DNA of 64,000 bases from Pirellulales bacterium (GTDB lineage Bacteria > Planctomycetota > Planctomycetia > Pirellulales > JAICIG01): contig JBBDYJ010000014.1 of the NCBI GenBank assembly GCA_040901675.1, forward strand, positions 39,305 through 103,304, written 5' to 3'. Position numbers and translations under genes: made by a program. The notes under the pieces are model-generated. The model had not been told where the DNA came from. It did not search any database and saw only the letters and a program-made list of their open reading frames with translations. Positions 30,196-30,269 of this stretch are shown piece after piece. Positions within the stretch are counted from its first letter, which is position 1; the number at the start of each line of letters is the position of its first letter.

Positions 30196-30269
30196 TGGGC
30201 GCGGAGGGAGTCGAACCCTCGACCTGGTCCTTATAAGAGACTTGCTCTGGCCCGCTGAGCTACGCGCCG
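30196..30269 (-). tRNA. tRNA-Ile-like (anticodon TAT) with a C1:C72 acceptor mismatch
   Basis: GTAGCTCAGCGGGCCAGAGC D-arm; loop CTTATAA; T-loop GGTTCGACT. Confidence 0.55.

Follow-up and report, generated by a model that had tools for sequence, protein, structure and literature searches.

Long tRNA arrays (L-arrays), for which the unit has been defined as at least 20 tRNA genes at a density of at least 2 per kb (PMC4758250), are supernumerary gene sets that spread horizontally and are linked to homing endonucleases (PMC8421152). Planctomycetes are among the array-bearing phyla in both surveys of these elements (PMC8421152, PMC4758250), and the regulation of long arrays has so far been studied experimentally mainly in Anabaena. 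TilS, which belongs with tRNA-Ile2 to the lysidine system for the reading of AUA codons, is an evolutionarily stable enzyme that a survey detected in 98.18% of bacteria (PMC6063277). Genes for tRNA-Ile(TAT) occur in Mycoplasma mobile and other tilS-less bacteria and coexist with tilS in some others, namely, Cyanothece PCC 7424, Ferrimonas balearica, and Lactobacillus casei (PMC3575796). Here, we analyzed a stretch of 64,000 nucleotides (the window) of contig JBBDYJ010000014.1 from a Pirellulales bacterium, which carries a tRNA-Ile gene with a UAU anticodon (the Ile-UAU gene) within an array of about 21 tRNA genes. This gene is a genuine UAU-anticodon tRNA gene of the isoleucine type. Its product probably is a functional elongator tRNA that belongs to an accessory L-array of Planctomycetota, outside the core tRNA set, and would act as a redundant decoder of AUA.

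The array resembles the trn operon of PCC 7120 (PMC8421152) and the Acidithiobacillus arrays (PMC4758250) in comprising at least 20 dense, apparently supernumerary tRNA genes on the same strand, in its patchy distribution among relatives, in its variable flanks, and in the presence of an HNH homing endonuclease gene in related loci. Unlike the arrays described in these studies, it is tied to a gene encoding an SPFH/Band-7 protein, to a leader open reading frame (ORF) followed by a terminator, and to a tRNA-like element, whereas control of the Anabaena operon involves 9-nucleotide (nt) direct repeats in the promoter. The window copy further differs from the described L-arrays in that the SPFH gene divides it into two parts and the endonuclease gene is missing. 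With respect to AUA, the Ile-UAU gene and its counterparts in tilS-less bacteria such as M. mobile (PMC3575796) have in common a UAU anticodon that is encoded in the genome, A37 and A38 in the loop, and a bacterial elongator cloverleaf. However, M. mobile has no tilS and has an adapted isoleucyl-tRNA synthetase (IleRS; Arg865) and ribosome (PMC3575796), whereas the Ile-UAU gene is optional in its family and is carried by a GC-rich genome in which AUA is rare. The source genome most likely resembles the bacteria that combine tRNA-Ile(TAT) with tilS, in which a redundant AUA decoder stands next to the lysidine system.

The Ile-UAU gene and its family

A first-pass annotation of the window had proposed a tRNA-Ile-like gene with the anticodon loop CTTATAA, the anticodon TAT, and a C1:C72 acceptor mismatch. 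ARAGORN called a tRNA-Ile(tat) at positions 30195-30269 of the minus strand, and the Rfam tRNA model RF00005 matched positions 30196-30269 of that strand over its full length (model positions 1-71) with a score of 58.2 bits (E=5.4e-10 for the 64-kb window; gathering score, 29 bits). The minus-strand letters, CGGCGCG-UA-GCUC-AGCGGGCCA-GAGC-A-AGUCU-CUUAUAA-GGACC-AGGUC-GAGGG-UUCGACU-CCCUC-CGCGCCC-A, contain the mismatch, with C1 opposite C72 and pairs 2:71 to 7:66 all of the G:C or C:G type, and a 7-nt anticodon loop with U33, UAU at positions 34 to 36, and A37. The discriminator base, A73, is followed by CUG, CCA not being encoded. A second nonstandard pair, A27/C43, closes the anticodon stem. 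The other 19 of the 21 pairs are standard, both exceptions are located at helix ends, and the conserved bases of the D, T, and anticodon loops are all intact. The palindromic core of the gene (cTTATAAg) makes TAT readable on both strands. A tRNA is formed only from the minus strand, and a plus-strand reading of the locus was dropped, since neither ARAGORN nor the Rfam tRNA model called a tRNA there. Single-sequence energy folding of the Ile-UAU gene did not return a cloverleaf (z-score of -0.9) and was not used as evidence; this failure is common for tRNAs.

Related loci were retrieved with the SPFH protein as the query, which gave 80 loci from species-representative genomes, all from Planctomycetota, at 65 to 80% protein identity. 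Of the 19 arrays extending over the position of the Ile-UAU gene, 11 carried the gene, which in every case directly followed Lys-UUU. In addition to these 11 orthologues in related genomes, a DNA pattern derived from the family retrieved at least 118 copies from metagenomes, 68 of 118 of which, among the matches listed, lie between Lys-UUU and Lys-CUU. Covariation was analyzed in a set of 12 orthologues found independently of the anticodon. In this set, 96.4% of the cells of the cloverleaf were paired and 10 of the 21 pairs had changed on both sides; none of 500 shuffles reached the observed pairing and covariation values, and slid controls were 39 to 56% paired. The anticodon TAT was invariant (12/12), and the loop CUUAUAA was found in 11 of the 12 sequences. 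An alternative fold with a different anticodon, a reservation attached to the initial proposal, is unsupported because four of the five anticodon-stem pairs covary in register. As judged from these sequences, the combination of compensatory changes in the stems and a constant loop indicates selection on a folded, decoding RNA. In some copies of the family (L006:4023-4111 and L300), the variable region has gained a 16-nt hairpin that forms a long extra arm, and the C/C combination at 1:72 is kept.

Position 1:72 accounted for five of the nine unpaired cells of the 12-sequence alignment. We established the spectrum of this pair in 95 distinct sequences, pooled from genomes and metagenomes with the metagenome part taken from the matches listed. 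The pair was U:G in 30 sequences, U:A in 27, unpaired C/C in 13, G:C in 9, C:G in 7, G:U in 4, another mismatch in 4, and A:U in 1. The first pair was open in 17 and strong in 16 of the 95 sequences, and position 1 was usually a pyrimidine. The C/C combination occurred in two sublineages with different anticodon stems, within otherwise intact arrays. Since the family as a whole typically has a 1:72 pair that is weak or open, the C1/C72 mismatch is a family trait rather than a sign of decay, i.e., a recurrent and tolerated state that is neither an assembly artifact nor, alone, evidence of decay. The open state is possibly favored in the Ile-UAU family. An open 1:72 pair weakens EF-Tu binding and the action of peptidyl-tRNA hydrolase and is one formyltransferase determinant in initiator tRNA. 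The possibility that a 1:72 mismatch is a general feature of array tRNAs was also considered and rejected: of 940 tRNA calls from the window and the 80 loci together, only 45 had such a mismatch, and these were concentrated in the Ile-UAU genes, the units with a CAU anticodon, and the tRNA-like family.

Two comparisons place this acceptor end in context. The Ile-UAU gene is similar to bacterial initiator tRNA (C1 opposite A72) in its pyrimidine at position 1, unpaired 1:72, A73, and G2:C71. It differs in its anticodon, which is UAU and not CAU, in its anticodon stem (AGUCU/GGACC), which is not closed by three consecutive G:C pairs, and in pair 3:70, which is G:C and not C:G; moreover, the mismatch is not universal in the family. 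An initiator tRNA is defined by a CAU anticodon, three G:C pairs at 29-31:39-41, and a 1:72 mismatch; of these features, the gene has only the mismatch, and the initiator-like member of the array is the neighboring CAU unit. Viral tRNA-Ile(UAU) genes located in tRNA clusters (at least 120 viral contigs) have the same D-arm and anticodon-loop pattern. A weak 1:72 pair is common in them (G:U, A:U, U:A, or U:G in 82 of 118 among the matches listed), whereas an unpaired 1:72 is rarer (7 of 118 among the matches listed) than in the array family (17/95). The planctomycete type of sequence and gene order was found on a single viral contig among the matches listed. The rarity attributed to a genomic UAU tRNA-Ile in the first-pass annotation thus holds for the bacterial housekeeping tRNA set, in which this anticodon is unusual, but not for mobile and viral tRNA sets, in which it is common; here, the gene is an optional array member.

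Isoleucine identity was considered independently of the anticodon. A73, A37, A38, C4:G69, and U12:A23 are present in the Ile-UAU gene and conserved in the family, and pair 29:41 is U:A and variable in the family. The identity set of E. coli IleRS is presumably composed of A73, A37/A38, C4:G69, U12:A23, and C29:G41. In a nearest-neighbor isotype test with the anticodon removed, which was performed with array and viral tRNAs and in which the search pattern had skewed the viral reference set, the Ile-UAU family stood alone, and the Ile, Val, and Lys bodies were not separated.

The array and its conserved module in Planctomycetota

The window is a GC-rich (about 64%) stretch of a planctomycete chromosome with ordinary genes, encoding, among others, EF-Ts, pyruvate phosphate dikinase, IspH/LytB, a radical SAM protein, DUF1501 and DUF1559 proteins, and a TonB-dependent receptor. 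The closest relatives of the window proteins are from Pirellulales and other Planctomycetota. ARAGORN called 19 tRNA genes on the minus strand between positions 29879 and 34484 (Table 1). With the CAU unit and the tRNA-like gene, the array comprises about 21 same-strand genes (~4.5 per kb), which corresponds to the size and density of an L-array, although two protein genes interrupt it. In the order of the minus strand, cluster A is followed by the tRNA-like gene, the SPFH gene, an ORF of 232 amino acids, and cluster B, which keeps the canonical array order yet is located downstream of the SPFH gene. For the 232-amino-acid ORF, neither a Pfam match nor, in the 80 related loci, a homologue was found. 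As subsets of the canonical order, clusters A and B complement each other without overlap, and no anticodon is duplicated, a pattern to be expected if one array was split or if two copies of the array lost complementary sets of genes. The window array has no Phe, Gly, Asn, His, or Cys tRNA gene and no HNH gene, and its about 21 genes compare with up to 40 in related arrays. Since five amino acid classes are missing, further tRNA genes must exist elsewhere in the genome. A stand-alone tRNA-Leu(UAG) gene, in which CCA is not encoded, is located at 14281-14364.

TABLE 1 Coordinates of the features of the array region
Feature	Position	Strand	Basis and remarks
tRNA-Ile(UAU) gene	30196..30269	minus	ARAGORN, Rfam, covariation (12 orthologues), 95 distinct family sequences; C1/C72 and A27/C43 unpaired, A73
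16-nt tandem repeat, 3.2 copies	30148..30200		TRF; minus-strand unit GGCCCG/CUGAG...; directly 3' of the Ile-UAU gene
tRNA cluster B	29879..30513	minus	Ile-GAU, Lys-UUU, Ile-UAU, Pro-CGG, Tyr-GUA, Glu-CUC
ORF of 232 amino acids	30702..31400	minus	Coding-type composition
SPFH/Band-7 protein gene	31451..32551	minus	Pfam PF01145, E=6e-29; conserved partner of the array
Conserved structured spacer before SPFH	32552..32992	minus	Conserved blocks in 61 aligned loci; about 400 nt
tRNA-like gene, variable-anticodon family	32993..33066	minus	Anticodon ACG, loop UUACGGA, C2/C71 unpaired
tRNA cluster A	33185..34484	minus	Glu-UUC, Gln-UUG, Asp, CAU unit, Leu-GAG, Val-GAC, Thr-GGU, Ala-UGC, Ser-GCU, Trp, Thr-UGU, Arg-CCG, Arg-GCG
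Noncanonical tRNA(CAU)	34107..34175	minus	Sequence, family search, covariation in 16 orthologues
Terminator hairpin GGCCCGGUGUC...GCACCGGG and U6	34620-34590, within 34502..34620	minus	Sequence; conserved terminator in 23 loci
Candidate leader ORF MTLWRPSSLQERTAAGLPAEQDTMLASSLTPQRLRL (with stop)	34653..34763	minus	UGA stop overlaps antiterminator strand GUGACGCUGGGCC (34656-34644)

About 35 of the 80 loci have an array of 20 to 40 same-strand tRNA genes, the end of which lies shortly upstream of the SPFH gene. The canonical order is Phe-GAA, Glu-UUC, Pro, Ile-GAU, Lys-UUU, Ile-UAU (where present), Lys-CUU, Thr, Gly, Pro, Asn, and, further on, His, Trp, Thr, several Arg, and Cys. Many related genomes have the SPFH unit without any array. 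The genes flanking the array differ between loci, and one contig bears two array copies (L006 and L013). In about 26 arrays, a gene for an HNH endonuclease is embedded between His-GUG and Trp-CCA (e.g., L006:6416-7228 and L053:7844-8512). In locus L016, the array carries a divergent Arg-CCG of its own, and a canonical Arg-CCG gene is found at a distance of 4 kb. The patchy distribution, the variable flanks, the two copies on a single contig, the embedded HNH gene, and the Arg-CCG redundancy indicate that the array is accessory. Patchiness and signs of mobility (variable flanks and the HNH gene) hold for the array family, the window copy having no HNH gene. By these comparisons, the window array is a rearranged, reduced copy of an apparently accessory, horizontally spreading L-array.

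The Ile-GAU tRNAs of the arrays, represented in the window at 30442-30513, are of two very different noncanonical body types (e.g., L006:3803, L019:5671, and L080:4254). One of them has a short GGGC/GCCC D arm similar to that of the CAU unit, and neither resembles the D arm of canonical tRNA-Ile, which the Ile-UAU gene has.

The reduced state of the window array raises the possibility that the Ile-UAU gene is a decaying, nonfunctional copy on its way to becoming a pseudogene, in an array that is itself degenerating, with C1/C72 and A27/C43 as its first lesions. This would account for the rearrangement and the gene losses reported above (HNH, His, Phe, Gly, Asn, and Cys; about 21 genes versus up to 40), for the two destabilizing helix-end substitutions that distinguish the gene from its nearest relatives, and for the short tandem duplications that flank it. 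However, the score of 58.2 bits is within the upper half of the array's tRNAs, the conserved loop bases are intact, and C/C at 1:72 is found in 13 distinct sequences from two sublineages with otherwise intact arrays. The complementarity of clusters A and B, with no duplicates, also suggests that each retained gene was kept. A low score, broken stems, and lost loop bases, which characterize tRNA pseudogenes, were not observed (19 of the 21 pairs are standard), and a pseudogene classification, mentioned as an option in the annotation, was not retained. We consider decay of the gene improbable. The repeat located 3' of the Ile-UAU gene (30148-30200) copies the 3' acceptor end and trailer of the gene and occupies the site of the Lys-CUU, Thr, and Gly genes of canonical arrays.

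An almost identical array including Ile-UAU is present on an IMG/VR contig (L132; IMGVR_UViG_3300007072_000340), on which two serine recombinase genes are located 5 to 7 kb away. This contig might represent a provirus, a mobile element, or a piece of chromosome wrongly classified as viral. It bears on another explanation, according to which the array tRNAs, including Ile-UAU, mainly serve in conflict, either as spare or decoy substrates against tRNA-targeting toxins or anticodon nucleases or as viral or mobile-element cargo, the odd features (open 1:72 pairs and D arms) being escape variants. The noncanonical character of many array tRNAs, the proximity of the two recombinase genes on that contig, the HNH endonuclease gene within arrays, and the frequency of UAU isoleucine tRNAs in viral tRNA clusters are in agreement with this explanation. 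However, the window contains no associated toxin, nuclease, or defense gene, the IMG/VR contig may be a mere chromosomal fragment, and normal decoding would still be compatible with a role in conflict, which overlaps the explanation that we prefer. A predominant role in conflict appears quite improbable.

The array, including Ile-UAU, is also carried by a cultured strain, Adhaeretor mobilis HG15A2 (L046; NZ_CP036263), making the question directly testable; tRNA counts for A. mobilis were not found in the literature. Lacipirellula limnantheis I41 (NZ_CP036339), in contrast, has an array from which Ile-UAU is missing. The gene following the SPFH gene in this strain (L046:11124-12140) and in two other loci encodes a nucleotidyltransferase of the RlaP family (RNA repair pathway).

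The tRNA-like gene located between cluster A and the SPFH gene is a member of a family present in 61 of 81 loci, 400 to 700 nt upstream of the SPFH start. The D, anticodon, and T arms are nearly invariant in this family, and the anticodon loop is hypervariable, with 49 distinct loops and 27 different triplets across the 61 loci. A34 is found in 38% of the sequences, and C33 is found in 17 of the 58 seven-nucleotide loops. The acceptor stem is never fully paired, only GGU/ACC being conserved.

Decoding of AUA

The first-pass annotation had taken the Ile-UAU gene, together with a CAT-type unit near position 34106, to bear on how the organism reads AUA. The CAU unit of the window was called neither by ARAGORN nor by the Rfam tRNA model, the only Rfam match being a subthreshold one to Tymo_tRNA-like. 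It has C1 opposite A72, A73, a 4-bp D stem, a 4-nt D loop without G18G19, and the T loop UGCGACU, with a G at T-loop position 55. An orthologue lies between Leu-CAG and Leu-GAG in nearly every array. An alignment of 16 copies showed 93% pairing and 11 compensatory pairs for the proposed fold, which comprises a 7-bp acceptor stem, a standard anticodon arm with the loop CUCAUAA, and a T arm with the loop UGCGACN or UGCAACN. None of the 16 copies has a pair at 1:72, where C or U faces A, C, or U, and A73 comes next. By its sequence, the unit has an initiator-type acceptor end and is no evident tRNA-Ile2; lysidine modification may nonetheless be compatible with its sequence. The array thus appears to be devoid of a clear lysidine substrate, and its reader of AUA would be the UAU tRNA. 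In five loci (L007, L012, L041, L043, and L052), the first CAU type is accompanied by a second one (U1:A72; T loop NUCGAUA), which is absent from the window. The notion that Ile-UAU and a CAU tRNA are alternatives was rejected, the first CAU type being present in nearly all arrays, including those bearing Ile-UAU.

These observations could be accommodated by Ile-UAU being the sole decoder of AUA, TilS and tRNA-Ile2 having been lost and the UAU anticodon being unmodified or differently modified, as in M. mobile. The UAU anticodon in a constant loop and the use of AUA codons are consistent with this possibility, as are the initiator-like rather than Ile2-like character of the array CAU tRNAs and the failure to find a canonical tRNA-Ile2 or a PP-loop (SGGxDS) protein in the window or in the 80 related loci, which span 1.2 Mb. 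The latter search is uninformative, since the window is about 1% of a genome of 6 to 8 Mb, so that failure to find tilS in it says nothing. The gene encoding IleRS is likewise not in the 64-kb window. Against a sole decoder, Ile-UAU is missing from 8 of the 19 arrays covering its position and from all related array-less genomes, indicating that the phylum must have another AUA decoder, and TilS is both near-universal and stable (PMC6063277). A sole-decoder role is very improbable. A housekeeping lysidine system is the default expectation because Ile-UAU is an optional array member that relatives without arrays do not have, TilS is near-universal (PMC6063277), and coexistence of tRNA-Ile(TAT) with tilS is documented (PMC3575796). 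What stands of the original proposal is that this is a genuine UAU-anticodon tRNA gene with a C1/C72 mismatch; as a member of an accessory array, it does not imply the loss of TilS. A literature search on tilS and lysidine in Planctomycetes returned nothing relevant.

The preferred explanation, in which Ile-UAU is a functional and redundant AUA decoder encoded by an accessory L-array, would involve the following steps. The tRNA would be cut from a multi-tRNA transcript by RNase P and RNase Z, and CCA would be added after processing because it is not encoded in the gene. Charged by IleRS, the tRNA would read the rare AUA codon without lysidine. AUA accounts for 21 of 12,987 codons in the 35 window ORFs with a coding-type composition (1.6 per 1,000; about 4% of the isoleucine codons). 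Ile-UAU would act alongside, and not instead of, the housekeeping TilS/tRNA-Ile2 system and, by analogy with the Anabaena L-array, might be mainly important under translation stress. In canonical arrays, transcription would be gated by an attenuator composed of a leader peptide and a terminator.

Several observations weigh against this explanation. The IleRS of the E. coli type charges UAU tRNA poorly, with a relative kcat/Km of 1.1% (PMC3575796), and the activity of Ile-UAU consequently depends on the IleRS of the host; a 2026 preprint on IleRS does not state the type present in Planctomycetes. The nearest-neighbor test, as reported above, failed to separate the Ile body from those of Val or Lys. 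The window copy combines C1/C72 and A27/C43 with a rearranged, depleted array devoid of the HNH gene, which could reflect relaxed constraint in the source genome. Finally, a sigma-70-type scan found no promoter-like site anywhere in positions 29500-35200, which include cluster B with the Ile-UAU gene.

A UAU isoleucine tRNA in a bacterial genome can thus be the cargo of an accessory array and not evidence of altered AUA decoding, and a 1:72 mismatch can be a stable family trait instead of a mark of decay. If Ile-UAU is active, AUA would be read by two chemically different routes, one of which would be independent of the essential TilS and could matter when tRNA modification or translation is impaired.

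Leader, spacer, and other features of the window

The terminator located upstream of the first array tRNA (Table 1) is part of a conserved arrangement. A perfect 10-bp terminator hairpin followed by a U-run precedes the first array tRNA in 23 loci, in which an upstream segment can pair with the 5' half of the terminator (mean of 8.9 of 10 positions). In 18 of the 23 loci, an ORF of 31 to 59 codons (e.g., ending with HPLRL) has its UGA stop at the start of this antiterminator segment. The leader is located upstream of Phe-GAA in loci including L006, L013, L021, L035, L044, L049, L053, and L080. It is also present in three array-less loci (L008, L009, and L017), indicating that the leader belongs to the SPFH unit and that the arrays lie between the leader and the SPFH gene. 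In the window, the 3' half of the terminator and its U-run are tandemly repeated about five times (34502-34605; units of 18 to 20 nt detected by TRF), directly upstream of the first array tRNA. On these sequence features, the leader and terminator look like a candidate ribosome-dependent attenuator. This reading fits the stress induction reported for the array of Anabaena, although that array is controlled in another way (PMC8421152). Our literature search yielded no paper that connects tRNA arrays with leader peptides.

The spacer preceding the SPFH gene ends with a terminator-like hairpin and a U-run at 32643-32627, followed by GGAGG-ATG, and may be a second structured leader. Neither the leader nor this spacer matched a known family in Rfam at a permissive threshold, and terminator-like sites were not enriched in 29500-35200. 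Cluster B, including Ile-UAU, is located behind the SPFH gene and the additional ORF, and the leader attenuator leaves its transcription unexplained.

We can only tentatively envisage, as a rather unlikely extension of these observations, that the array and SPFH module form a self-contained translation-stress operon. The leader peptide would sense ribosome stalling and open the terminator, thereby releasing spare tRNAs that include a lysidine-independent AUA reader. The weak or open 1:72 pair of this reader, a pair that the initiator-like CAU tRNA of the array has in a fully open state, would then be selected, rather than resulting from drift, and would alter handling by EF-Tu, peptidyl-tRNA hydrolase, processing enzymes, or acceptor-end toxins. 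The module itself, with its leader ORF and terminator, noncanonical tRNAs, tRNA-like element, and SPFH gene, offers a handle on the regulation of long arrays.

Two other RNA features were detected in the window. Rfam reported a match to group II intron domains D1 to D4 at 45397-45511 of the minus strand (77.5 bits), which spans only 115 nt of a long ORF that has TPR and glycosyltransferase matches; neither a reverse transcriptase nor a match to D5/D6 was seen with it. A cobalamin riboswitch (61682-61866, minus strand; 85.8 bits) is located directly upstream of the TonB-dependent receptor gene (59578-61644, minus strand), which is an ordinary arrangement.

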